64,000 nt of DNA from Candidatus Omnitrophota bacterium (GTDB lineage: Bacteria > Omnitrophota > Omnitrophia > Omnitrophales > JACQLI01), in assembly GCA_016179745.1 (NCBI GenBank), contig JACPCP010000013.1, forward strand, positions 35,344 to 99,343, given 5' to 3'. A model generated the notes under the pieces. The model had not been told where the DNA came from, ran no database searches, and was given only the letters and a program-made list of their open reading frames with translations. The position numbers and the translations under genes are program-made. This document shows positions 454 through 49,373 of this stretch, in pieces. How positions within the stretch are numbered: position 1 is the first letter of the stretch; every line of letters begins with the position of its first letter.

Positions 454-1722
454 TTAGGTCCCGCAGTTAAAATATTTGTCATAGGCCGTTCCCGGAAGAA
501 GGTTCATCCGGCTCAACACCCCAATCAGCCCTTTGAACCGCCTGAGAAGCGAATAGCGGTTCGGATAATCCCGAAAGGTTTTGGTCGGGCGTTTCATCCA
601 CTCCTCAAGTTCTTCCCTCGTGACCCCCAGCCGCTTGATGCACAAATCGATCACGGAGGGGTCTTCAATCACGTAGGTTTCCTTCATCCTTGCGAGCGCC
701 TCGTCCCGTGACATCTGGCCCGAGCGGACCAGCGCAGAATAATTGAAAATTCTCCGGTCGATCTTGAATTTGACCCGGTAAACATAATGCATCAAACTCT
801 GATACAAGTCGTCATAATAATGGGCGCCGGGGTAAACCCAGCCCAGCTCTCTCTTCAAGATCTCTTCCGCCTCCCGCCGGACATAAGGAACCAGATATAA
901 AACCGGAATCGTTTTGATCCGTTTCCAAAGCGTGTAATAGGCCAGGTGATGAAGGTCCAGATTGAATCCGGGATCCTTCGGGGACCAGCGCCTCAGTTTC
1001 ACGGTCCCAAATTGCTCCTGAATCTTTTTCAGGTAGAAGCCGTCCAGATAATTCCAGGAAAGCGGCGCAATGCCCTCGGTCCGAAACGACTGGCCGATCA
1101 GGATATTTCTGATTCCTTCCCGCACAGCAGTCCCATATAAAGCCGTGGCAATGCCAATATCGGTTGAAATGTTAATGCCGGGGACGGAGGCCTTTAGGAA
1201 GGAAATCTTCAAATCCTTGGCCTCCCGCCAATCCGAGGTGACCGTCCTCATCTCCACTCCCAGCCGCTCAACCGCCTGGGTCATATTCTCACCGGCGACG
1301 GGGTTGCCGAACCCGTTATTAAAGTGCACAGCAAGCGGCCGAAGCCCCCACACCCGTTTGGCGAGGTATAACGTGTAAGTGCTGTCCCGGCCTCCGCTGA
1401 CTCCAATCAGGCAGTCATATTTTTTTTTCCGGCCATCCCGCTTGATTTTCGAAAGGTGACTCTCAAGCTTTTTGGCACCGGAGGCATTTAAGGGAAAAGT
1501 CTTCTCGAGTTTGTCGTGAACCTCGCAAAAATTACAAATCCCCTCGGAGTCAAACGCCACGCCCGGCACCGCAGCGTCCATAATGCAGCGAGTGCAGACC
1601 TGAACAGACGGAGGACTAGCGGTCGGCGAGGAGCTCACGGACTCTTTCTGAATAATCGGCCCACTGAACTTTGTTTGCATAGTCTTTATAGCGTTGAAAG
1701 TGATAGGCATTGCTGTAAGCAT
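454..1722 (-). CDS. N-acetyl sugar amidotransferase (WbpG/WbuX family; Zn-ribbon + PP-loop ATP pyrophosphatase), paralog 1
   Basis: 4-Cys ribbon CTRCIMDAAVPGVAFDSEGICNFCEVHD, then PP-loop IGVSGGRDSTYTLY. About two-thirds identical by eye to ORF 41796..43004. Start uncertain: in-frame ATGs at 1722, 1710 and 1680 and GTG at 1638 all overlap the upstream gene end at 1616. Confidence 0.85.
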   Translation of the reverse strand: MLTAMPITFNAIKTMQTKFSGPIIQKESVSSSPTASPPSVQVCTRCIMDAAVPGVAFDSEGICNFCEVHDKLEKTFPLNASGAKKLESHLSKIKRDGRKKKYDCLIGVSGGRDSTYTLYLAKRVWGLRPLAVHFNNGFGNPVAGENMTQAVERLGVEMRTVTSDWREAKDLKISFLKASVPGINISTDIGIATALYGTAVREGIRNILIGQSFRTEGIAPLSWNYLDGFYLKKIQEQFGTVKLRRWSPKDPGFNLDLHHLAYYTLWKRIKTIPVLYLVPYVRREAEEILKRELGWVYPGAHYYDDLYQSLMHYVYRVKFKIDRRIFNYSALVRSGQMSRDEALARMKETYVIEDPSVIDLCIKRLGVTREELEEWMKRPTKTFRDYPNRYSLLRRFKGLIGVLSRMNLLPGTAYDKYFNCGT

Positions 1723-2910: not shown

Positions 2911-4929
2911 TTAGACGGGGTATAATTTTGGCATCTGATTGATGATCCGAATGGCCTCGGCCAAATCGATCCCGTTCGTCTCCCCATACCATCGGATCGA
3001 GTCCGGACGGGGCCGGTTTTCCTCCCCGGCTTCCCTCAGGGCCTTTTCCCGGGAAATCAATCCCTGCCGGATTTGATTGCTCCGGAAGGTGTCGTTTTCC
3101 GTAAAACCGGCGACCGTGTAGTAAATGTAATTATAAAAAGCGGCCGTGCCGTCGCCGATCCGCCATGTCGTTGGGGTATCTGCTCGGGTTTCCCAATCAT
3201 ACCGGTCCCGCAGAGTCTCGAGGATCCGGCCTTCCTCCCATTCAATGTATTCGTAGAAATTATGATAGTCGTGCCCGATCAGATAATACGAGGCAAAGCC
3301 GGATAAGGTGTCCCCCACGGAACGATTCAAATAGGCTGGATTTAACAAATACTCCTTTCCATAGTAGACGGCGAGCTCGAGCCGGTCACGAAGCGAGAGG
3401 TCGTAATGCCGTTCCCGTTTTCGCCGCTCTTGAATGCCGCTGAAGGCGACTTTAAAATCTGTCCGTTCCAGAGCATTCATCCCAAAAAAAAGCAGGGGGG
3501 TATCAAGCTGCTTGCGTAACATTCGGCCGTAGAAGAAAAACTGCTTGTCCCCGGCCATAAAAAGGGGAACGGTCCCCAGCCGGGGCCGCTTGAGCCAGGC
3601 ATTCACATTCTGCCGGATAAACTCCCGCTTCTTTTGAATATCCGCCGAAATCAGGATGTGTTCCACTCCCAGTTTGCCGCACAGGCGGGAAATGTTCCGG
3701 CGGGCCAAGGGCGTCACCATCCCCCAGTCATAGGTAAACGCCACGGGATTCATTCCGAGTTCTGCCTTGAGGGTGTGAAGCATGAAGGAACTGTCCCGTC
3801 CCCCGCTCGCCGCCACAATGCAGTCGGGTTCGCCGTTGGTTTTCCGGTGTGGGGCCGCCAACTCTTCAAGGGCCGAAACGCCCCTGTATTTCACAGGAGA
3901 GAAAGTCCGGCAGACATTACAGATCCCTTCGTCATCAAACAAAATAAAAGGGAGGGTCTCGGAAAGAATGCAACGGCGGCATCGTTTGAGGCGGTCGATG
4001 GCCGGACGGTTATCCTGCAAAAGAGATTCCCACCCTGATGGCCGAAGGAGGCTTCCATCCTTCCCCTCTCCCCCTCTGGGGGTAAACGGCCTACTAGAAA
4101 TGTCTGAGATTCTTCGGGCCTTGCCATTGGGTTTTAATTCCTGAACTCCGGTTTCTTGAGTCTCAAGACTAAGAAACTGGACACTCAGGTCTGAGGTCTG
4201 AATCAAACAAGCGCTTCCGGCTTTTAAGTGCGTCACTTCAGAGGAAGCAAGGCCGGGGAATTTCGCCATGAGCGTTTTCAGCATAGAACGTTCCGAGGCA
4301 AATACCACTGCCCTGGGAGCAGGACAAAAACCCAGGTAGAGCGACCCATTATTGGAAGCGAGTAACAGATAATCCAGTTTGTCAAACAATGCTGCGATCG
4401 ATGCCATGCCTTCTATCCGGCGATACGTGCTTCGAACCGATTCCACGAGCGAGGCTCCCTGACGGTAGTGGTGCCCCATCAGGGCGGGAATGATCTCGGT
4501 ATCCACTTCCAGTTCACGCCGAAGCTCGGGAAACTCCAGCCACAGTTCGGCGGGGTTGACAATAATGCCGTTATGGACCGTCACGATCCCTTCCCTGCAC
4601 ACGGGCTGGTTATTGCCGTGCACCCGATAGGAACCGTCGGTCTCCATGCGGGCGTGACCGATCAAGGCCGCCGGTTGACGGATTGTTTGGCGGGAGTTTT
4701 TGCTGAAAGCGAAGTCGAAAAACTGCCGGTAATCCCAGCTCCTCATGATCTGACTCGGGGACACTGCCCGCTTCATCACCCGGATCTGATCCCCTGTCAT
4801 CAAGGCAAGGCCCGACGCCTCTTTCCCTCTTGATTCCGAGAGTTTGAACAACTCCCCCACGACCGATCGGAAGGAGGCCGTATCAAAATGAGAGGTTTCG
4901 TTTACAGCGAGACCAAAGATTCCGCACAT
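2911..4929 (-). CDS. Fusion protein: class II (Ntn) glutamine amidotransferase domain + WbpG/WbuX-type Zn-ribbon/PP-loop sugar amidotransferase
   Basis: N-terminus MCGIFGLAV (Cys2 nucleophile), GHARMETDG and VHNGIIVNPAELW are class II GATase motifs. The C-terminal half has CRRCILSETLPFILFDDEGICNVCRTF followed by the PP-loop VAASGGRDSSFMLH. Confidence 0.8.
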   Translation of the reverse strand: MCGIFGLAVNETSHFDTASFRSVVGELFKLSESRGKEASGLALMTGDQIRVMKRAVSPSQIMRSWDYRQFFDFAFSKNSRQTIRQPAALIGHARMETDGSYRVHGNNQPVCREGIVTVHNGIIVNPAELWLEFPELRRELEVDTEIIPALMGHHYRQGASLVESVRSTYRRIEGMASIAALFDKLDYLLLASNNGSLYLGFCPAPRAVVFASERSMLKTLMAKFPGLASSEVTHLKAGSACLIQTSDLSVQFLSLETQETGVQELKPNGKARRISDISSRPFTPRGGEGKDGSLLRPSGWESLLQDNRPAIDRLKRCRRCILSETLPFILFDDEGICNVCRTFSPVKYRGVSALEELAAPHRKTNGEPDCIVAASGGRDSSFMLHTLKAELGMNPVAFTYDWGMVTPLARRNISRLCGKLGVEHILISADIQKKREFIRQNVNAWLKRPRLGTVPLFMAGDKQFFFYGRMLRKQLDTPLLFFGMNALERTDFKVAFSGIQERRKRERHYDLSLRDRLELAVYYGKEYLLNPAYLNRSVGDTLSGFASYYLIGHDYHNFYEYIEWEEGRILETLRDRYDWETRADTPTTWRIGDGTAAFYNYIYYTVAGFTENDTFRSNQIRQGLISREKALREAGEENRPRPDSIRWYGETNGIDLAEAIRIINQMPKLYPV

Positions 4930-40064: not shown

Positions 40065-40319
40065 TTACGTTGAGACCGGATGCTTTTCCCGAATGATTTT
40101 TTGAATGGCCTCGACGCTCACCATCTCTTGGGCAAGTTCGGGAGAAATTTTCAGACCAAACTCTTCTTCTACGGCCAGGACAATATCAATGAAAGTGAGG
40201 GAGTCCCAGTTCTCAATATCTTCCATGCGAGTCTCCAAGCTAATCCTGGGGCGGTGCTCTTTGCCCAGAACCCGGCACAAAAGATTAAGGAGTTTCGGGT
40301 CAACGGCCGCAGGATTCAT
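40065..40319 (-). CDS. Acyl/peptidyl carrier protein (phosphopantetheine-binding)
   Basis: 84 aa. ENWDSLTFIDIVLAVEEEFGLKI contains the DSL Ser attachment motif with the helix II acidic pattern. Overlaps the upstream ligase gene by 20 nt. Confidence 0.8.
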   Translation of the reverse strand: MNPAAVDPKLLNLLCRVLGKEHRPRISLETRMEDIENWDSLTFIDIVLAVEEEFGLKISPELAQEMVSVEAIQKIIREKHPVST

Positions 40320-41502
40320 CTCTCAATCCTTGGGGCCAGGCGGACCTTTCCATCCCTTTCTGCGCATAAAGGGCATAGGCCAGGCGTTCATAGCCATATC
40401 CGGTGCAGCCGGAAAAAATCGGCTCGCATGATTTTCTCCTGATTTGATACGCTTCTGTTAAAGTCTCCTGATGATGATTGAAGGAAGCGACCGCAAGCCA
40501 GTCTTCGGCGTGCGGCAGATAAAGCTGCATTTCATATTTCAGCTTGAAAACCGTCTGATAGGCCCGCCGCTTTTCCGATCCTCCGGCAAAAAAGGCGTCG
40601 CTCGCTGTGATGACACGATATTTCAGCTTCCACTGATGGAAGAGCGCCTTCAAATGATCCAGCGTCCAGGTCCTCTCCGCTTCGACAAAATCCTGTGACC
40701 CGAAATAAATGATTTCCCGCATGGTAAAGGTCTGGAGGCGGTGAAGGCCGCCGACGCCCGCCCCTTCGTTCCGGTGACAGCGCCCGAGCGCCGTAAAAAG
40801 GGAAGTTTCCTTCTCAAGGGTTTGTCCACGCAGGCTTTCAAACGTGTGATAACAAACCGTGGGAGACAAAAGCCGGGTGTGATGAGAAGCAACGTCCTCC
40901 AAAGCGCCGTCAGAACTTAAATATTTTTGAGGGTCTCCGGCCAAACCTTCCACGAGTTCAAAATCATGATGAATGGAGCCAACCAAAAAAAGCTGGTGTG
41001 GGAAACCCGCTACATAGCCATTTTGAACCAGGCTCGTTACGGGAACGGTCGTAGGAACGCCTTGCTCAGCGGCACCTCTTCCGAGAGCCGCCTGATGGAA
41101 AATGCGGTCGAGCGCCTCAAGGTATTTCAAAAATTCTCCCTGATACACATAAATACCCGGCCCGACTTCAATCACCTGACGGTCCCGGGCCAGGACAGGA
41201 TAAGGATCTGAATGATTGAGAAGCTCTCCTTCTTCTTCGGTCACGACCTGGGGAACGGCTTTCTGAAAAGAACGTGAAGTCCGCTGCGCCAGACGCACCA
41301 CCTTTTCCTTGAAGCTGTCCGGATCAGAAGGAGGCTCTGAAAAATGGATCTCAATCTGATGGGAGGAACAGGAGACAGAGGCAATCTTTTCATCCATGAA
41401 ATAAACCTGGTCCCGGAGAAGCCGGAAGGCCTCCCCGGAAAGGGCAATTTCAGCCGGAATAGGGACTAGCAAGGCAAGGCTTTGCGGGGCCATCTTGTGC
41501 AT
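40300..41502 (-). CDS. Class II aminoacyl-tRNA-synthetase-like protein (SerRS-type catalytic core without tRNA-binding domains): candidate amino acid:[carrier protein] ligase
   Basis: Motif-2-like GRCHRNEGAGVGGLHRLQTFTMREIIYFG. Motif-3-like FSGCTGYGYERLAYALY. Candidate Zn ligands are C217, E263 and C366. The N-terminal ~100 aa are unassigned and the start is uncertain (ATG 41502 or 41397). Confidence 0.7.
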   Translation of the reverse strand: MHKMAPQSLALLVPIPAEIALSGEAFRLLRDQVYFMDEKIASVSCSSHQIEIHFSEPPSDPDSFKEKVVRLAQRTSRSFQKAVPQVVTEEEGELLNHSDPYPVLARDRQVIEVGPGIYVYQGEFLKYLEALDRIFHQAALGRGAAEQGVPTTVPVTSLVQNGYVAGFPHQLFLVGSIHHDFELVEGLAGDPQKYLSSDGALEDVASHHTRLLSPTVCYHTFESLRGQTLEKETSLFTALGRCHRNEGAGVGGLHRLQTFTMREIIYFGSQDFVEAERTWTLDHLKALFHQWKLKYRVITASDAFFAGGSEKRRAYQTVFKLKYEMQLYLPHAEDWLAVASFNHHQETLTEAYQIRRKSCEPIFSGCTGYGYERLAYALYAQKGMERSAWPQGLRDESCGR

Positions 41503-41806
41503 GACGGGGCATTATACGATCAATCCCGAACAAGCGCCACCAGATGGGTCCCGAGGAGGCGGTGTCTCCGTAAAGCTGGACGATTTTCCCCGCCTCCGCC
41601 CGGCCCGAGTAACGCAGCCCCGTCGCTTCTTTTTGAATCATCTCTTTTTCCCGCTCCTCCAGTTCAAACCGGGCTGAAGGCATTTGCCCTTTCGGAAGAT
41701 CGATCGTAAAGATGACTGAATCCTCAGGGCTGTTGGCCGAAAGATTCAGCGTGGTCCTTCCGTCAAAAGTCCCCATCTCAAATGGGAACCCTTCACTAAT
41801 TTCCAC
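41450..41806 (-). pseudogene. Internal fragment of a Methyltransf_24-like methyltransferase gene (remnant; the intact paralog is 37827..38618)
   Basis: Only about 75 codons (41558..41782) align: FEMGTFDGRTTLNLSANS..IFTIDLP..IVQLYGDTA versus FEMGTLDGRTTLNLAANS..IYTLDLP..ITQLYGDTA. It lacks the N-terminal ~150 aa and the C-terminal third (FVFVDASH motif absent). Confidence 0.65.
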
Positions 41807-43004
41807 AGTGAAAATACTTGTCGTAGGCGCTCGCCGGCAGAAGATTGGTTTGGCTTAAAAATCTTACGAGAGGCCGGAGTTTCTTTATCAGGCTGTAATG
41901 ATTGGGGTAATCATGGAATGTTTTCGGCGGTAAAGATAAGAACATGCTGAGCTCCGTCCGGGTGATGCCGAGCCGCTTCACACAAAGATCCAAGATCTTT
42001 GGATCTTCGATACTATAGACCTCTTTGACACGCCGAAGGGCTTCCGGCCTTTCCATTTGTCCGGAACGGACTAACGCAGAGTAGAAATAAAGCCTCCGGT
42101 CAATCTTGAACTTCACCCGAAGAATATAAGTCATCAGGCTTTGATAGAGATCGTCAAAATATTTCGCCCCCGGATACACCCAATCCAGCTCGCTTTCCAG
42201 AATCTTCTCGACCTCGGAAATCACATACCTGACATAATAGAGAAACGATATCACTCGAAGTCGGCGCCAGAGGGTGTAATAAAACATATGGAACACGGTC
42301 AGGTTGAATCCTGGATCGTCGGGGGTCCACTTCCTGAGAGGGATGGTTCCAAACAAACGATGGACGGCCTTCAAATATTTCCCGTCCAGGTAATTCCATG
42401 AAAGCGGGGCAATCCCTTCGGTTCTGAACGACCGGCCGAGAAAAATATACTTGATGTTTTCCCTGGCGGCCCGGCCGTAAAGGGCAGTGGCAATACCAAC
42501 GTCTGTCCCCTGCTCCAGATCCGGGGTGGAGGCCTTCAAGAATGAGAGCTTTAAATCCTTTGATTCCCTCCAATCGGAGGTAATCGTCCTCAAATCCACG
42601 CCCAGTTTTTCTGTGGCCCGGATCATATTTTCTCCGGCGACAGGATTCCCGAACCCATCGTTGAAATGAACCGCCAAAGGCCTCAATCCATAAACCTTTT
42701 TGGCCAGGTAGAGGGTATACGTGCTGTCCCGCCCCCCGCTGACTCCAATAATACAGTCATACTTCCTGCGTTTTCCTCGATGCTTAATCCGCTGCATGAG
42801 AAGGGTTAGGGATTCCTTCCCCCTGGCGTCCAAGGGATACCGTTCCTCGAGTCCGTCGTGAACCTTGCAGAAATTGCATTCGCCATTCTCATCAAAAACC
42901 ACACCGGAAACGGTCGTATCCATAATGCAACGGCCGCAAATCCGATATCCCGGTTTTTGTTCTTTGCAGGACTCAAACTTTTCCTGATCCAGGTTCAAAT
43001 CCAT
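41796..43004 (-). CDS. N-acetyl sugar amidotransferase (WbpG/WbuX family), paralog 2
   Basis: CGRCIMDTTVSGVVFDENGECNFCKVHD plus IGVSGGRDSTYTLY. Colinear with ORF 454..1722 over its full length. Confidence 0.85.
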   Translation of the reverse strand: MDLNLDQEKFESCKEQKPGYRICGRCIMDTTVSGVVFDENGECNFCKVHDGLEERYPLDARGKESLTLLMQRIKHRGKRRKYDCIIGVSGGRDSTYTLYLAKKVYGLRPLAVHFNDGFGNPVAGENMIRATEKLGVDLRTITSDWRESKDLKLSFLKASTPDLEQGTDVGIATALYGRAARENIKYIFLGRSFRTEGIAPLSWNYLDGKYLKAVHRLFGTIPLRKWTPDDPGFNLTVFHMFYYTLWRRLRVISFLYYVRYVISEVEKILESELDWVYPGAKYFDDLYQSLMTYILRVKFKIDRRLYFYSALVRSGQMERPEALRRVKEVYSIEDPKILDLCVKRLGITRTELSMFLSLPPKTFHDYPNHYSLIKKLRPLVRFLSQTNLLPASAYDKYFHCGN

Positions 43005-43013
43005 GGGGAATTA

Positions 43014-43155
43014 AAATCAAAACCCAGCTTTTTTAACCTCTCTCCGATGGCCGTTCCTTTTTCCAACCGATCAGGCACCGAGATATCCGCTATGACAAGG
43101 TCGCCCGCAAATTCATTGAATTTCCCACGGGCCACAACACCCTTTTTATCCACCG
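43014..43155 (-). pseudogene. Orphan copy of the 3' end (last ~47 codons) of the CN-hydrolase gene
   Basis: By manual alignment to 46252..46393, 7 mismatches fall in the ~133-nt core. It would encode VDKKGVVARGKFNEFAGDLVIADISVPDRLEKGTAIGERLKKLG. There is no start codon and an upstream in-frame stop. Confidence 0.8.
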
Positions 43156-43179
43156 TCGCATCTATGAATCCTGTCTTCC

Positions 43180-44541
43180 TCAGACTATTTTGAATTTACA
43201 GAAAGCGTAAGCACTCATTTTAAAAAGAAGACCGGCATGGAAAAAGCGGCGGATGTTGGTCTGCCCGTAAGAGCGTGCCCGGTAACGGATCGGGATCTCG
43301 AGAATTTTCAAGTGAAGTTTGGCGGCACCGAAAATCAGATCAAAATCTCCAAAAGGATCAAAATCACCGAAAAATTTCCTTCCCTCCTGAACCTTCTTGT
43401 AGTTTTTCTGTAAAAGGGCTTTTGTTCCGCAAAGCGTATCCTTAATAGGCACCTCCAAAATCCAACTGAGAAGAAGGCTGAAAAATTTATTCCCCAATAT
43501 ATTCACAAATCTCATGGAATCTTTCTCGAGCGGATAAACCAACCGGGACCCCATGACCATTTCTCCCTGTCCTTCCACAATAGCGTTATAAAACTTTGTA
43601 AGTTCCTCCGGCGGGACGGTCAGGTCGGCATCCAGTATCATCAGGATATCCCCCGTTGACTCCTCAAATCCCCTTCTGACAGCGTCTCCCTTCCCCTCTC
43701 CTCTCTGCCGGAAGGCCTTCATTTTCCATTCTCGTCCGTATTTTTCCTGAATCCTCAAAATTTCCTCCCAAGTCCCGTCTTTAGAGTGGCCTTCAACGAA
43801 AATAATTTCCGTCCCGCTCCCAAGACGTGGCATCCGTTGAATTGCCGTCTCAATATTTCCCTTTTCGTTCCGGACCGGCACCACTACCGAGACGGAAAGT
43901 TTTTCGTCCCGTTGGGAAATTAAAGGCCGTGCGACAAAATATTGAGTGAGACACAGACGGTTAATCAGAGGAAGTTTTGCAAGGAAGACATTGATGAAAT
44001 CGGTAAGCACGGGGATTTTAAACGGGAAAAGAAGCCGAAAACCATGACGAATCAACTCATGCCCCGACAAATGAAGCAGGCACTGGATATCGTAAGGTGA
44101 AAGCCAGTTTTGAATTCTTTCCTTTCTGGCTCTGTTAAATAAGCTGAGCAGCGAAAAAAAAGGAGCCCACAGATAATTCCAGTTAAAGATCACCAAACGA
44201 GTGCCCCGATGACTTTTTTGTCTCAATAGGCTAAGCACTTCCTGGATGTCGAAAATGAGGGAAAGGGAATGATCGATCACGATAAAGTCGAATGTGTTAC
44301 TGCTTTCTTTTAAATCTCTGGTTTCCTCCGGTCGCACCCATAAACAAGATCCCGATTGAAACCCACCCCGTAAATCCTCGCTTTCTTCGCCGATGAACAG
44401 AATGGAAGCTTCCGGAGGAATCATAAAGCGGCAAAAACGAAGGAAATCCTTTCGTTCGACCGATAAAGGTTGAGCCAATACAGACTCCCCCTCTTCTCGG
44501 GACAGGGATTCTTCAGTGGGAATTTTTGTAGGAATGCTCAT
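43180..44541 (-). CDS. Two-domain protein: N-terminal methyltransferase-like (degenerate motif I) domain + GT2 glycosyltransferase
   Basis: C-domain has LSVSVVVPVRNEKGNIE, IIFVEGHSKDGT, LMILDADLTVPPEEL. N-domain has ILFIGEESEDL..FDFIVIDHSL..LRQKSHRGTRLVIFNWN (MTase-like topology; SAM motif unclear). Confidence 0.7.
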   Translation of the reverse strand: MSIPTKIPTEESLSREEGESVLAQPLSVERKDFLRFCRFMIPPEASILFIGEESEDLRGGFQSGSCLWVRPEETRDLKESSNTFDFIVIDHSLSLIFDIQEVLSLLRQKSHRGTRLVIFNWNYLWAPFFSLLSLFNRARKERIQNWLSPYDIQCLLHLSGHELIRHGFRLLFPFKIPVLTDFINVFLAKLPLINRLCLTQYFVARPLISQRDEKLSVSVVVPVRNEKGNIETAIQRMPRLGSGTEIIFVEGHSKDGTWEEILRIQEKYGREWKMKAFRQRGEGKGDAVRRGFEESTGDILMILDADLTVPPEELTKFYNAIVEGQGEMVMGSRLVYPLEKDSMRFVNILGNKFFSLLLSWILEVPIKDTLCGTKALLQKNYKKVQEGRKFFGDFDPFGDFDLIFGAAKLHLKILEIPIRYRARSYGQTNIRRFFHAGLLFKMSAYAFCKFKIV

Positions 44542-45451
44542 ACCAATCGATTGTTTTTCGAAGTCCTTCTACAAAGGGAAGTTTTGCACGAAATGCAAAA
44601 AGCCTTTCGGCCCTTGAAACATCGAGCAGGCGGCGGGGCTGGCCATTCGGTTTGGTTGGGTCCCACTCGAATTTTCCGGCATACCCCATAAACTCCGAAA
44701 CTTTAAGGACCAAATCCTTAATAGAAATTTCTTGACCGCTCCCGAGGTTGACGGGTTCACCCCCTTCATACCGCTCCACGGCCAGCACAATGGCCTCAGC
44801 GGCTTCGTCCACATAAAGAAATTCCCTCGTCGCAGAACCATCCCCCCAAACCTTTATCGATTGTTTTGCGGTTGCCTTGGCCTCTGAAATCTTTCGGATG
44901 AGGGCTGGAATGACATGAGAAGAACTTGGTTCAAAATTGTCGCCGGGGCCGTAGAGGTTGACGGGGATTAAAAAAATTGAATTCATTCCATACTGTTCAC
45001 GATAGGCCTGCATTTGCACCATTAAAGCCTTTTTGGCAATTCCATAGGGGGCGTTTGTCTCCTCCGGATACCCCTCCCAAATCGATTCCTCTCGAAATGG
45101 AGCGGGACAGAATTTGGGATACGAACAAACCGTCCCGACCACGACCATCTTCCGAACCTTGGCACGACGGCAGGCTTCGATCAATTGCGCTCCCATAATC
45201 AAATTGTCATAAAACAATTCCCCCGGCCTTTCACGGTTCAAACCGATTCCACCCACCCGCCCTGCCAGGTGAATCACTAAATCCTTCCCTTGCACCGCCT
45301 GTTCCACATTCCCCCAAATCCTTAGATCGCAGTTATTGGAACGGGGAATTTCGATGGTCATTCCCGGAAACCGGCTTTTGAGGCGGGCGACAACCGCCCG
45401 TCCCAAGAATCCATTCCCTCCTGTTACCAAAGCGTGTTTAAACCCAGGCAT
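44513..45451 (-). CDS. fcl: GDP-L-fucose synthase-like (GDP-4-keto-6-deoxymannose 3,5-epimerase/4-reductase)
   Basis: ALVTGGNGFLGRAV, YGIAKKAL (YxxxK), PVNLYGPGDNFEPSSSHVIPALIRKISEAK (characteristic Fcl block), GDGSATREFLYVDE. Confidence 0.8.
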   Translation of the reverse strand: MPGFKHALVTGGNGFLGRAVVARLKSRFPGMTIEIPRSNNCDLRIWGNVEQAVQGKDLVIHLAGRVGGIGLNRERPGELFYDNLIMGAQLIEACRRAKVRKMVVVGTVCSYPKFCPAPFREESIWEGYPEETNAPYGIAKKALMVQMQAYREQYGMNSIFLIPVNLYGPGDNFEPSSSHVIPALIRKISEAKATAKQSIKVWGDGSATREFLYVDEAAEAIVLAVERYEGGEPVNLGSGQEISIKDLVLKVSEFMGYAGKFEWDPTKPNGQPRRLLDVSRAERLFAFRAKLPFVEGLRKTIDWYEHSYKNSH

Positions 45452-45454
45452 TGT

Positions 45455-46162
45455 TCATTCCCCGTTTTTCCTTTTAATGACAAGGTATTGTATCAAGCAA
45501 AGACGGTTTAAAAAAGGGATCTGGGGCATCCAAGAATTTAGAAATGAGGCCAAGAGAGGGATTCGTTTTGGAACAAACATCCGATACCCCTTTTTGACAA
45601 CCGTCAAATTAAGCTCCTCTAGCGTTTTGAGAATTTCACTCATCGAAACAAAACGGTTGGGCCCTTCGGGCATTTTCAGTCCTCGTTTTTCGGCCCATTT
45701 TAAAAAAAAATCCCACAACGGGTTCGCCGTCAAAACAATCATTTCGGAGGCCGGAGTCAAAATCTCACAGAAAGAACCAAAGGCGGCTCTTAAATCTGTA
45801 AGGTGGTCCAGCAGGTCGATAAGAATTATGAAATCGAATTGCCCTTTGACCGCTAAGTGATCACAGTCCGACACAAGGAAATGGCCGTTGGGGTGCTTCT
45901 GCCGGGCCCGACGAACCATCCCCTCACTTAAGTCAATCCCGACCCCGTGTCGAGGCCCCAAGGAAGCTAAGAGGGTCCCTGTTCCACAACCCACGTCTAA
46001 CACCCTTTTGCCGGGAGGGATTCGAGATTTCAAGAATCTTAGAATCTCCTCATAGTAATATTCATTTTTCTTTTTCCAACCATCATAGTGTTCGGCAATA
46101 TCTTCAAAATGTCGCTTAACCGCTGCTTTCTCCTTCCGATCCGTTTCGTTGATCGCATCCAT
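45455..46162 (-). CDS. Class I SAM-dependent methyltransferase
   Basis: VLDVGCGTGTL motif I, GIDLSEGMV, FDFIILIDLLDHL. GGAGG SD 7 nt upstream of ATG 46162. Confidence 0.85.
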   Translation of the reverse strand: MDAINETDRKEKAAVKRHFEDIAEHYDGWKKKNEYYYEEILRFLKSRIPPGKRVLDVGCGTGTLLASLGPRHGVGIDLSEGMVRRARQKHPNGHFLVSDCDHLAVKGQFDFIILIDLLDHLTDLRAAFGSFCEILTPASEMIVLTANPLWDFFLKWAEKRGLKMPEGPNRFVSMSEILKTLEELNLTVVKKGYRMFVPKRIPLLASFLNSWMPQIPFLNRLCLIQYLVIKRKNGE

Positions 46163-46238
46163 CTAAAGTTCCTCCACCGCATAAAGCATAGGTTTCTCGT
46201 TTTCCAAAGCGACGTTCAGGCGGTCACCCAGGTCGTGT

Positions 46239-47078
46239 TCATGAAGCGCTGAAATCGCAGCCCAGCTTTTTTAACCTCTCTCCGATGGCCGTTCCTTTTT
46301 CCAACCGGTCAGGCACCGAGATATCCGCCATGACAAGGTCTCCCGCAAATTCGTTGAACTTCCCACGGGCCACCACGCCCTTTTTATCCACCGCCAGGGA
46401 ACAACCCACCATCTTCTTTCCTTCGTAAGGGCCGCCGACAATATAGCCCACACTGGTGGCCCCCACAATCACCAGGTCATACAACCGGGCGAGAAGGGTG
46501 TAGGGCTTGATCCATTTTTCTTTATAGGGGTCTTCGGTTTCATCGATGGAATAATCCACGGTCCAAGACGATGGGGAAAGAATCAATTGCGCCCCCATTC
46601 GGGCCAGGGCGTGCCCAATCGGAAGACCATCGACATAGTTATCCGCACAGATATTGACCCCGATTTTTCCAAACTCTGTGTCGACAACGGAAAGAGATTG
46701 ACCCACAGAATAAAAAGGCTGCTCCACCGTTAGCAGATTGATTTTATGATACTTCAAAAGGATTTGACCTCCCGGATCCACCAGCAACGCCGCATTAAAC
46801 CTTTGGTCCCCCGAACGTTCCGTCAAGCCCGCACAGACATAAAGGTGAGACTCCCTTGCCAGCTCACAAATCCGATCGCTGAAACGGCCCGGGATCGGCT
46901 CAGCCCCGGAAAGACTGCTGGGATGGGTCCAGCCAAAATCCAGGGTCTCGGGAAGCAGCAAAAGATCACAGCCCTTCTCGTGGGCCTCTTTCGCCATTGT
47001 CTGGGCCCGTCCGAGATTTCTTTCCGGTTCTCCCCCTTCCACCAAAAGCTGTCCCATTCCAATCTTCAATTTTTTCAT
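46239..47078 (-). CDS. Carbon-nitrogen hydrolase (nitrilase-superfamily) protein
   Basis: Putative Glu-Lys-Cys triad contexts: LLLLPETLDFGW, LLKYHKINLL, IGVNICADN. 279 aa. TAAATG junction with the upstream gene. Confidence 0.85.
   Translation of the reverse strand: MKKLKIGMGQLLVEGGEPERNLGRAQTMAKEAHEKGCDLLLLPETLDFGWTHPSSLSGAEPIPGRFSDRICELARESHLYVCAGLTERSGDQRFNAALLVDPGGQILLKYHKINLLTVEQPFYSVGQSLSVVDTEFGKIGVNICADNYVDGLPIGHALARMGAQLILSPSSWTVDYSIDETEDPYKEKWIKPYTLLARLYDLVIVGATSVGYIVGGPYEGKKMVGCSLAVDKKGVVARGKFNEFAGDLVMADISVPDRLEKGTAIGERLKKLGCDFSAS
46252..46393 (-). repeat. Parent copy (within the intact CN-hydrolase gene) of the 142-bp segment duplicated at 43014..43155
   Basis: Direct repeat in the same orientation, about 3.2 kb apart, roughly 95% identical by manual alignment. 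Confidence 0.8.
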
Positions 47079-49373
47079 TTAGTAGACGCTGGATTCGCCC
47101 TTTTCGTTCTTTGTTTCGATCCGGATCCGGTATTCCCCGGATTGAACCCCCAGTAAAGGCGAAAGATCATCCGTCAGCCAACGGGAGCCGTCAAAAAAAA
47201 TACTGCGAGAGCCCCCGTGGTTCAGAGGAATTTCCCCATTGAGCCGGGCGTCGCCGTCATGCACGTATTTATACATTGAAATCTCCCCGGAAGAACGTTG
47301 GAATAGCGGCCCGTGAAATAGGGGCCGAGCGTTTGAAACGGCGTAATCCCCCGCTACCTCCCAGGCATTGTCCTTCAAGTGAACTGCCCTGGTGTCCTTT
47401 GAATAAAATTCAATCGTATTGAATTCCCCCTCCCGGAGAATCCCGGAGGGAAGGGGGATTGAAAACCACTGCCGCATTTCAAAGGCCTTCCGCTCCTCAT
47501 CGTTCAGAAATCTTCGGTAAAAATCCTCGCCTTCGATCAAGAAACTCGACGGGACTTCATCCTTTTGAAGGGCCCCCAGGTTTCCAATTTCTTTCCCATT
47601 GACCATGACGGCCCAGTCTAGTTTCCCCTCGGAAAGAATCAGATCGACCCGCAAAGTTTCTTCAACCGTCCTCCCAAGGCTCCCGGGAGGGATAAAGATC
47701 TCCTGACGGATCCGGAAGGCCGGGTGATCGATTCTTGCTTTCCATTCGTGCCAGCTTTCCTGACAGAGACCGTAGACCCCAAAAAGCGCCAAAAAAATTA
47801 TACCGCCCGTTAAAAGCATGCCCACAAGCCGGCGTCTTGGGAGCGCTGGGGCAAGCCACACCCCCAGCGCAATGAGGAAAGCTAAAACAGAGACCGTCTC
47901 GACCGCCAATTTTATTATCAGGAGGGATCTTCCCGTTAGCCCCGGGCTGATGAGAAGCACAGTTTCGGGGCGGGCCAGATGAAAACCAATGACCGCCGGT
48001 AAAGCCACGGCCGCCCCCATCAGGATTTTCCTCTTTGATGCAAAAAAAACCCCTCGGTTTTTCCAAAAAAAATCAACCGCATAACCCGAAAAAATTAACA
48101 CAAACGGCATGAAGGTAACATTGTAACGGGTCTCAATATGAAAAAAACAGTGGAGCAGCGTAGCATAGAAAGGCACCGAAAAATAGAGAACCGCCTTTGC
48201 CGGAAGGCCGGTTCCGGCGAGAAGAAGCCCAAAAAGGCCGAGAAGAATGAATGCTCGGTGTCCCCAAAGAAACCATTCCGAAGGAAACGCATAATACCGC
48301 CAAGGCCAGTCATACGGTTCCCACCAAAGCCTCCGCACTTTCAGAAGATAAAGCTTCAAAAATTGAGCCGGAGACTTCAAGATTTGAGCGACGGCTGCCT
48401 TCTTCAGTTCCGTATCAAGCGGCCAAGCCCTGATGCCGCCGGTTTCCAAGGCCTCGAGACCGAGTTTCTCGAGAGCCACGTTGCCCGCTTCTGAGAATCG
48501 AGCAAACACGGCCATAAAATCCGGCAGCCATCCGTCATACTCAGGGACATTGGAAAACAAAAGCGCCTTCCCTTGATCGGACATCGCAGCCACGGTGCCC
48601 GGCCTCTGGACCTGCCACGAGACGGCGGCCATCCACAAAAGATACGGGATTAAAAAAACAACAAACGTATTTCTGAGATAAACCCCGGAAAACTTCAAGC
48701 CACGCTGGAAGCGGCCCAGGCACCCCAAAATTCCAAAGAGGAAAAAGGGAAAGTAGATCAAAGACAATTTCGAAAGACTCAACAAAAAAAGCACAACTCC
48801 CGACGCCACGGAGGCCCCGAAGAAACGGCGTTGACGAAAACGGGTCATCGCCGCAAAAAAAAGAAGCAGTAAAAAGGTGGCAAGGGACTCCTGATGAATT
48901 TTTCCGGCGACAAACACAAGCGGCGGATAAACCGCCGCTAAAAATGCGGCGAGAAGCCCGGTCCTCGCTCCCCCCATATCCTTCCCCAATCCATAAACTA
49001 AAAATAGAGCCAGACTCAAAAGCAGCGCCTGGACCATGAAGACAGGAAAAGCGTTTGTTCCCGTGAACCCGGTCACAAAGGCAAGGAAAAGGGGGTAAGT
49101 CAACCCCCGTTTGAAAGCGCCCCACGGCAGAACCAGCCCGTATTTTTCAAGCAGACTCCCGGACGGGTCCGCCCGGCTCGTCAAAAGGTCCTTCAGGAGA
49201 GGCCCCCCTTGCTTTAGATAAGCCTGGATTTGAAAACCCGTCTTCCAGTAAAGACCGTCATCATCTTTGGCTTCCAGGGGCTGGCGGGGCGGAGATGTAA
49301 AGAGAAGGACAAGACGGACGGCCAATGAAAGAAGGACTACCCAGAAAATCAGAGGGACTCGCTTCTTTTCCAT
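47079..49373 (-). CDS. Large GT-C-like polytopic membrane protein with ~250-aa C-terminal extracytoplasmic domain
   Basis: 764 aa. First loop PLEAKDDDGLYWKTGFQI. About 13 TM segments. The C-terminal hydrophilic domain (residues ~520-764) has no motif I recognise. Confidence 0.6.
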   Translation of the reverse strand: MEKKRVPLIFWVVLLSLAVRLVLLFTSPPRQPLEAKDDDGLYWKTGFQIQAYLKQGGPLLKDLLTSRADPSGSLLEKYGLVLPWGAFKRGLTYPLFLAFVTGFTGTNAFPVFMVQALLLSLALFLVYGLGKDMGGARTGLLAAFLAAVYPPLVFVAGKIHQESLATFLLLLFFAAMTRFRQRRFFGASVASGVVLFLLSLSKLSLIYFPFFLFGILGCLGRFQRGLKFSGVYLRNTFVVFLIPYLLWMAAVSWQVQRPGTVAAMSDQGKALLFSNVPEYDGWLPDFMAVFARFSEAGNVALEKLGLEALETGGIRAWPLDTELKKAAVAQILKSPAQFLKLYLLKVRRLWWEPYDWPWRYYAFPSEWFLWGHRAFILLGLFGLLLAGTGLPAKAVLYFSVPFYATLLHCFFHIETRYNVTFMPFVLIFSGYAVDFFWKNRGVFFASKRKILMGAAVALPAVIGFHLARPETVLLISPGLTGRSLLIIKLAVETVSVLAFLIALGVWLAPALPRRRLVGMLLTGGIIFLALFGVYGLCQESWHEWKARIDHPAFRIRQEIFIPPGSLGRTVEETLRVDLILSEGKLDWAVMVNGKEIGNLGALQKDEVPSSFLIEGEDFYRRFLNDEERKAFEMRQWFSIPLPSGILREGEFNTIEFYSKDTRAVHLKDNAWEVAGDYAVSNARPLFHGPLFQRSSGEISMYKYVHDGDARLNGEIPLNHGGSRSIFFDGSRWLTDDLSPLLGVQSGEYRIRIETKNEKGESSVY

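Follow-up and report, generated by a model that had tools for sequence, protein, structure and literature searches.

Genes of the locus

The window (the whole stretch of 64,000 nucleotides that was analysed) is part of a contig of 122.9 kb from a Candidatus Omnitrophica MAG. All genes of the region described here are on the minus strand; they make up a cluster for polysaccharide biosynthesis, in the order PMT_2-type glycosyltransferase (47079..49373), CN-hydrolase, B, C, D, a fragment of the hydrolase gene, and E. The intact CN-hydrolase (46239..47078; Pfam PF00795, 3e-31), downstream of the PMT_2-type glycosyltransferase, has a length of 279 aa, is identical to MBI2167201.1 and is 100% identical to protein P0001 of the Candidatus Omnitrophica MAG. 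It also matches the NadE model, weakly. The residues which are invariant across 30 hydrolase homologues include E44, K112 and C144.

Between the intact hydrolase and E lies a block of 3.1 kb, which is composed of a spacer, the genes B, C and D, and a further 24 nt; approximately 154 nt of hydrolase 3′ end, up to the E ATG, are found on both sides of it. The first gene, B (45455..46162, minus strand), is a class I SAM-dependent methyltransferase (Pfam Methyltransf_23/25) with a strong Shine–Dalgarno (SD) sequence of its own (GGAGGA). The middle gene, C (44513..45451, minus strand), is an NAD-dependent sugar epimerase/reductase similar to GDP-L-fucose synthase (Pfam PF01370, with a sub-threshold NCBIfam match to GDP-L-fucose synthase). 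The last gene, D (43180..44541, minus strand), is a glycosyltransferase of family 2 (Pfam PF00535) and carries a degenerate N-terminal methyltransferase-like domain, which no longer matches Pfam. The insert encodes the methyltransferase, the epimerase and the glycosyltransferase only, and searches of it for a transposase, an integrase or terminal inverted repeats were negative. As to base composition, the three lowest GC3 values among the 49 window genes (mean 0.61, SD 0.046) are those of B (0.50), C (0.52) and D (0.49, the lowest in the window). The trio recurs, equally tightly spaced and in identical order, in unrelated contigs (L082–L084), the gene lists of which contain neither the hydrolase nor E. 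Protein identities between L082 and the window are 56% (B), 68% (C) and 60% (D), and D has 60% identity to P0242, whose neighbours are the same. The low GC3 and the conservation of the trio in other genomic contexts point to a separate origin of B-C-D. The methyltransferase, the GDP-fucose-synthase-like epimerase and the methyltransferase–glycosyltransferase fusion constitute a conserved three-gene module, which in other contigs adjoins a DUF6798 membrane protein.

Gene E (41796..43004, minus strand) is an N-acetyl sugar amidotransferase (NASAT/WbuX; TIGR03573, 219.6 bits with a cut-off of 203.2). Its translation contains the PP-loop SGGRDS and the tetracysteine CGRC...CNFC; the motifs of NASAT (PP-loop SGGxDS and tetracysteine) are defined in PMC10607449. 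E has no SD sequence and its ATG is overlapped by an upstream stop, as in the Omnitrophota genome L005 and in the close relatives L094–L098. Concerning the annotated starts, the public record gives E as 375 aa from Met28, but a length of 402 aa, with the start at 43004, is supported by its 400–402-aa homologues and by the conserved overlapped ATG; D is given as 385 aa, against 453 aa (start 44541) according to Logan gene calls and homologues. The public starts of both genes are probably too late.

The orphan hydrolase fragment

The fragment (43001..43155, minus strand) is an orphan 3′ end of the CN-hydrolase gene, with 94% identity to 46260..46393 in an ungapped alignment. It corresponds to codons 230–279 of the intact gene plus the native tail, reaches the ATG of E and fills the gap of 175 nt between D and E. 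Its repeat partner is the 3′ end of the intact gene (last 50 codons, 46239..46393, minus strand), and the same pair was recovered independently by repeat finding (43014-43155 and 46252-46393, 93%). An ungapped comparison of 43023..43155 with 46261..46393 is free of gaps at an offset of 3238 and gives seven mismatches (43139, 43136, 43121, 43115, 43103, 43091 and 43070), all of which are third positions in the minus-strand frame of 46239..47078; based on the codon table, six are synonymous and one is Met to Ile (ATG/ATA). An eighth core difference, at 43022, is also a synonymous third-position change. The longest perfect repeat between the copies is 47 nt (43023..43069 = 46261..46307), and neither indels nor stops occur across the 50 codons.

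For the 44-codon core, Nei-Gojobori counts (Sd=7, Nd=1) give a dS of 0.26 and a dN of 0.010, with a dN/dS of about 0.04. With random placement of the differences, the probability that seven of seven are third-position is 3.3e-4 and that eight of eight are is 9.6e-5; the probability of at least seven of eight being synonymous by chance is 2.7e-4. The initial annotation had listed seven differences in 43023..43155, all at third positions, with six synonymous and one Met to Ile; the computed ungapped alignment and the codon table agree with it exactly. The exact alignment and dN/dS test that it had proposed gave the values above, with no indels and no first- or second-position changes in this interval. 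Its extent of 43014-43155 stands for the repeat itself but not for the end of homology, which continues past 43014, far more diverged, to ~43001-43005 (the gene E ATG).

This diverged tail contains nine further differences, several of them at first or second positions, and the proteins end in GFDFNSPWI* (fragment) and GCDFSAS* (intact copy). The tail of the fragment matches that of the full-length relatives P0361–P0363, which end in GFGFSSPWI. The last ~20 nt of the intact copy (46239..46258; tail CDFSAS*) have departed strongly from the ancestral state, and one of the changes (TGG to TGA) creates a new stop that makes the protein two residues shorter. When polarised on L094–L098 and L001, the intact copy has seven derived changes in these 20 nt (the equivalents of 43001-43020) vs two to three in the 134-nt core. 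This fits a tail which has long since been freed from the constraint of overlapping the E start.

At its other end, the homology begins abruptly at 43155, at codon 230 of 279, which is inside the gene and not at a gene boundary. A spacer of 24 nt (43156..43179) lies between the stop of gene D and this point. At the novel joint 43155/43156 the homology ends within 1–3 nt, the shared bases being 'CG' and one more (43154-43157). No homology was found outside either end of the repeat, local alignments of the flanks on both sides scoring no higher than shuffled sequence.

The frame of the fragment is open from 43195 to 42995, and the in-frame stop upstream that had been reported is present at 43196-43198. 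A 52-codon ORF with a GTG start lies in the hydrolase frame (42995..43153, minus strand; labelled in GenBank as hypothetical protein MBI2167197.1, HYU34_03000). The initial annotation had also described the fragment as having no start codon, which is correct for ATG but not for GTG, one of which is in frame at the first homologous codon (the Val230 codon of the intact gene). The stop of the ORF (TGA, 42995-42997) overlaps the ATG of E (43002-43004) by 10 nt. No Pfam or NCBIfam match was obtained for the 52-codon ORF. No convincing SD sequence or ribosome-binding site was seen ahead of the GTG, the SD survey of the window being too noisy to decide, with uncurated ORF starts. The fragment (residues 230–279) begins beyond the catalytic Glu-Lys-Cys residues (the invariant E44, K112 and C144), without which it cannot be a hydrolase, and most likely it has no enzymatic role. 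Inside the fragment no promoter-like or terminator-like site was found, and its RNA fold is no stabler than that of shuffles (z = +0.4); a regulatory element within it was therefore rejected. The open frame and the possible GTG start make some residual selection on the fragment possible.

Gene order in relatives and a probable history of the two copies

A scan of one genome per species gave 80 loci with hydrolase homologues at 61–73% identity, which span Omnitrophota, Hymenobacter and other Bacteroidota, Planctomycetes, Acidobacteria, Bdellovibrionota and Nitrospinota. At 77 of these 80 loci, the gene directly downstream of the hydrolase, on the same strand, encodes an E homologue. The stop and start of the hydrolase–NASAT pair often overlap across phyla, and the overlap of 10 nt is also present in the Omnitrophota genome L005 (TCATGCAGTTAG).

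The closer relatives L094–L098 are five independent ENA or JGI assemblies, obtained solely from 90%-identity clusters of window proteins. Their nucleotide identity to the window is 91–92% (L094 and L095) and 93% (L096–L098). All five contain the hydrolase directly followed by E, and none contains B-C-D. The 10-nt stop/start overlap is CCATGGATCTGA in these relatives vs CCATGGATTTGA in the window, and their complete hydrolases have the fragment type of tail (...GFGFSSPWI). Since the close relatives have the same overlap and the same type of tail, the fragment and E keep the native junction, and the 3.1 kb that separate the intact gene from the fragment are, as judged from these comparisons, an insertion. 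In L096–L098 the order is hydrolase, E and a full-length methyltransferase. The ancestral order in this lineage is PMT2-type transferase, CN-hydrolase, E, methyltransferase, with the 10-nt overlap of hydrolase stop and E start.

A rare exception to the conserved hydrolase–E pair is seen in the contig L001, which has 78% nucleotide identity to the window and is collinear with it over 7.3 kb. In L001 (Logan SRR22387997, 6665..8049) a Methyltransf_24 gene stands directly after the hydrolase with a 4-nt overlap and E is not at that position; the contig ends soon after, so that a placement of E beyond it is unseen. The order of L001 was also considered as the ancestral one, with E and the fragment inserted into a hydrolase–methyltransferase backbone, and was rejected because L096–L098, which are nearer, have hydrolase–E–methyltransferase.

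Six sequences (L094–L098 and the more distant L001) were used as outgroups to polarise the core differences. The fragment branch has five certain derived changes (43139, 43136, 43121, 43091 and 43022) and one ambiguous (43103), all at third positions; the intact-copy branch has two (43115 and 43070), or three if 43103 is counted. At least four derived states are common to the two copies, which are therefore sister alleles. Between the window and L096, the dS of the orthologues is 0.26 for the hydrolase and 0.26 for E, and it equals the dS between the two copies. As the divergence of the copies is that of the orthologues of this sister lineage, they are as far apart as separate lineages.

That the divergence arose within a functional gene had been proposed initially, and the third-position location of all eight differences, the dS of 0.26 with a dN of 0.010 and the changes on the fragment branch, all third-position, bear this out. 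Based on this pattern, which comes from 44 codons, we consider it likely that two diverged functional alleles were joined recently by recombination between lineages, rather than one copy having decayed in place. As its changes in the core, all at third positions, indicate, nearly all of the separate history of the fragment passed inside a working gene, and its orphaning is therefore recent. The earlier proposal of a recent import from a diverged locus holds as far as a recent recombination between lineages is concerned; the fragment itself, which sits in the ancestral position beside E, may equally be the resident end or have come in together with an imported E allele.

If two alleles were joined in this way, the two ~154-nt copies would come from lineages ~6% apart, one allele being in the complete gene now ahead of the cassette and the other still attached to E. 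The joining event would have relied on homology at one end and been illegitimate at the other, 43155/43156, and would resemble homology-facilitated illegitimate recombination (HFIR); we infer an HFIR-like mechanism. Two histories, both with a one-sided homologous and an illegitimate event, fit equally well. According to the first, a genome with the canonical pair would have received the intact allele together with B-C-D, by a crossover that used homology upstream and joined illegitimately within the resident gene, at its codon 230. According to the second, a genome with hydrolase-B-C-D would have received a canonical E allele, by an exchange which was homologous downstream and dragged in 154 nt of the donor hydrolase end. 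The fragment is possibly the resident end, the intact gene and the cassette being imported, because it still overlaps the E start as in the close relatives. The 2–3 nt of shared bases at the illegitimate joint are neutral as to HFIR.

A search for a hydrolase allele identical to the fragment, which the initial annotation had suggested, gave no such allele in JGI metagenomes or protein matches. A 42-nt pattern, degenerate at the five variant sites, had no match in JGI metagenome contigs, and among the protein matches listed beyond the window's own none is above 87% (hydrolase), 69% (E) or 60% (D). Neither a complete gene with the exact variants of the fragment nor a cassette-bearing donor without the fragment was found as a parental genome in the collections searched. 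The nearest complete alleles (those of L094–L098, from the 90% clusters) are a third allele type. Mismatch density against L094 and L096 shows no clear breakpoint step.

The fragment is a gene remnant at a recombination junction, an ordinary scar of a well-known kind. In the T6SS effector–immunity arrays of Vibrio cholerae, effector 3′ ends are found ahead of orphan immunity genes, and Rhs loci show C-terminal displacement; for both, HFIR has been proposed (PMC5361080). The likeness lies in an intact partner gene that has an orphan 3′ fragment immediately ahead of it; in the T6SS/Rhs model a module enters by upstream homology and pushes the resident 3′ end and the partner gene further along. 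Unlike those systems, the present locus contains sugar-modification enzymes rather than toxin–immunity pairs and a single displacement rather than an array, and the displaced piece is 94% identical to the 3′ end of the incoming gene, which gives a direct repeat. O-antigen and capsule clusters also contain gene remnants at recombination junctions, such as wzy in Salmonella groups B1 and D1 (PMC3715488). Common to both are mosaic polysaccharide blocks which differ in history and base composition, and dead gene pieces in intergenic gaps. The present case differs in that no IS or H-repeat is found at the junction, the host is an uncultured Omnitrophota bacterium, and the remnant has diverged, in the manner of an allele, from a complete copy that belongs to the same cluster. 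It would represent a clean and datable recombination between lineages which reshaped a surface-polysaccharide cluster, an event that in Omnitrophota is rarely resolved to the nucleotide.

Other explanations and neighbouring features

Among the other explanations, the remnant could have been kept for two uses, as a coupling leader for the SD-less E and as one of the direct repeats that make B-C-D excisable, which is unlikely. As a leader, it would allow ribosomes leaving gene D to re-initiate at the GTG 27 nt downstream and then be handed to E. As repeats, the two 94%-identical 154-nt copies would recombine homologously and release B-C-D. If this were true, excision would restore a hybrid but complete hydrolase–E pair, and the population could switch its surface-glycan modification reversibly; a co-existence of cassette-bearing and excised forms would be consistent with the loop topology of the k=31 assemblies.

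Very doubtful is the explanation that the fragment still works, with the 52-codon GTG ORF being translated (e.g. by re-initiation past the D stop) and kept as a peptide or to feed the E start. It agrees with the frame being open from 43195 to 42995, with the GTG being placed exactly at the first homologous codon, with the overlapped ATG of the SD-less E, and with the prediction of the ORF by gene callers both in GenBank (MBI2167197.1) and in the Logan contig L091. It is opposed by the lack of an SD ahead of the GTG and of a family match, and by the missing E-K-C residues. Purifying selection in place would then be the cause of the silent-only changes, which is just as doubtful: selection for mere translatability would permit missense changes, and an allelic origin explains a divergence at the level of separate lineages more simply. 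In relatives, E seems to rely on the overlapping stop upstream of it; that the ORF, with its GTG 27 nt past the D stop, passes ribosomes on to E is possible but unsupported. A fusion context, which had been offered as an alternative initially, is likewise unsupported, gene D ending in another frame and the GTG ORF lacking a convincing ribosome-binding site; read-through from D was rejected since the D stop (43180-43182) is out of frame with the fragment ORF.

We regard as highly improbable that insertion of the cassette duplicated ~154 nt in place and that the downstream copy then decayed neutrally as dead DNA. The copies are indeed sisters, with at least four derived states in common vs the close relatives, and a direct repeat flanking the insert is the expected leftover of such a duplication. 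The substitution pattern is what such decay fails to explain: a mixed model, with the dead copy neutral and the live copy changing synonymously only, gives a third-position probability of ~0.46 per site and ~0.002 for eight of eight. The five to six derived core changes of the fragment itself are all third-position; a dS of 0.26, the age of a lineage split, predicts roughly ten first- or second-position changes, and probably indels, in a neutral copy by our estimate, and the core has none; and no indels or stops are found in 50 codons. Insertion by a transposon or IS, or by an integron, was rejected on the size of the repeat (~154 nt vs a target duplication of a few bp) and on the lack of a transposase, an integrase and terminal inverted repeats.

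Concerning the assembly, the window was compared independently with Logan contigs (k=31) from SRR121134xx runs, which match it at 100% or near. The contig L091 (seven samples) equals window 46290..43040 at 100% and spans genes B, C and D, with the end of the intact copy on one side of them and, on the other, the joint and 116 nt of the fragment, in which every fragment-specific variant is present. The contigs L085–L090 begin at 43052 and run through E and further. The contig ends at 43040, 43052 and 46290 are due to the 47-nt perfect repeat, which breaks the k=31 graph. The joint between D and the fragment at 43155/43156 is independently confirmed. Across the 47-nt repeat, where the k=31 contigs break, the 122.9-kb MAG contig alone resolves how the fragment is linked to E. 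An artefact, in which the real locus would be a canonical hydrolase–E pair, B-C-D would come from a co-occurring strain or a 3,238-bp circle and the repeat would be mis-threaded, is highly improbable. The k=31 assemblies form a loop, and L091 leaves and re-enters the 47-nt repeat, so that a canonical locus with a 3,238-bp circle would fit these contigs equally. This alternative threading is nevertheless unlikely: the D–fragment joint and all fragment-specific variants occur in L091 in seven samples at 100% identity, and a piece of hydrolase beside D exists physically under any pairing. Moreover, the variants flanking the repeat are 49 nt apart, which is within the span of a single read, the 122.9-kb MAG contig runs straight through, and neither replication nor mobility genes are encoded on the putative circle.

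A second remnant adjoins E downstream. It is an internal 76-codon piece of a Methyltransf_24/O-methyltransferase gene (41554..41782, minus strand) and lies within the ORF 41450..41806 (GenBank hypothetical protein MBI2167195.1, 108 aa). The corresponding gene is full length in L096–L098, where it stands right after E, and in L001, where it follows the hydrolase; missing from the window are 359 nt of its 5′ part and also the 3′ part. The piece is 96.5% identical to L096 2105-2333 (the rest of the locus is at ~93%), which hints at a recombination history different from that of the rest of the locus. As a second gene remnant also flanks E, the locus is a mosaic. For annotation, the GenBank 'hypothetical proteins' MBI2167197.1 and MBI2167195.1 are both gene remnants.

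With regard to the hydrolase–NASAT pair, in NadE (glutamine-dependent NAD+ synthetase) a glutaminase domain of the CN-hydrolase type is joined to a PP-loop synthetase domain in one protein. The present locus has the same domain combination, a hydrolase and a PP-loop ATP-pyrophosphatase (NASAT); unlike NadE, it has them in two separate genes, the hydrolase matches the NadE model weakly, and the supply of ammonia is suggested by adjacency. Based on the gene adjacency and the NadE-like combination of domains, the hydrolase may be the ammonia-supplying subunit for the formation of acetamidino sugars by E. The NASAT structure paper describes the PP-loop site as similar to that of NadE (PMC10607449). 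A full-text search found no papers treating both acetamidino and carbon-nitrogen hydrolase. The widely conserved pair, as a possible split NadE-like glutamine amidotransferase making acetamidino sugars, may matter more than the scar.

Some further genes of the window are of note. A second NASAT paralogue (454..1722, minus strand; TIGR03573, 215 bits) lies at the low-coordinate end, has 65% aa identity to E and stands without a CN-hydrolase partner. A 672-aa protein with a GATase_7 (glutamine-amidotransferase) domain is encoded two genes upstream of this paralogue (2911..4929, minus strand) and is possibly an alternative ammonia donor. Downstream of the remnants, the region 40065..41502 (minus strand) contains a 400-aa amino acid-[acyl-carrier-protein] ligase-like protein (a class II tRNA-synthetase paralogue), followed by an 84-aa PP-binding carrier protein; the two together suggest an aminoacyl decoration of the glycan.
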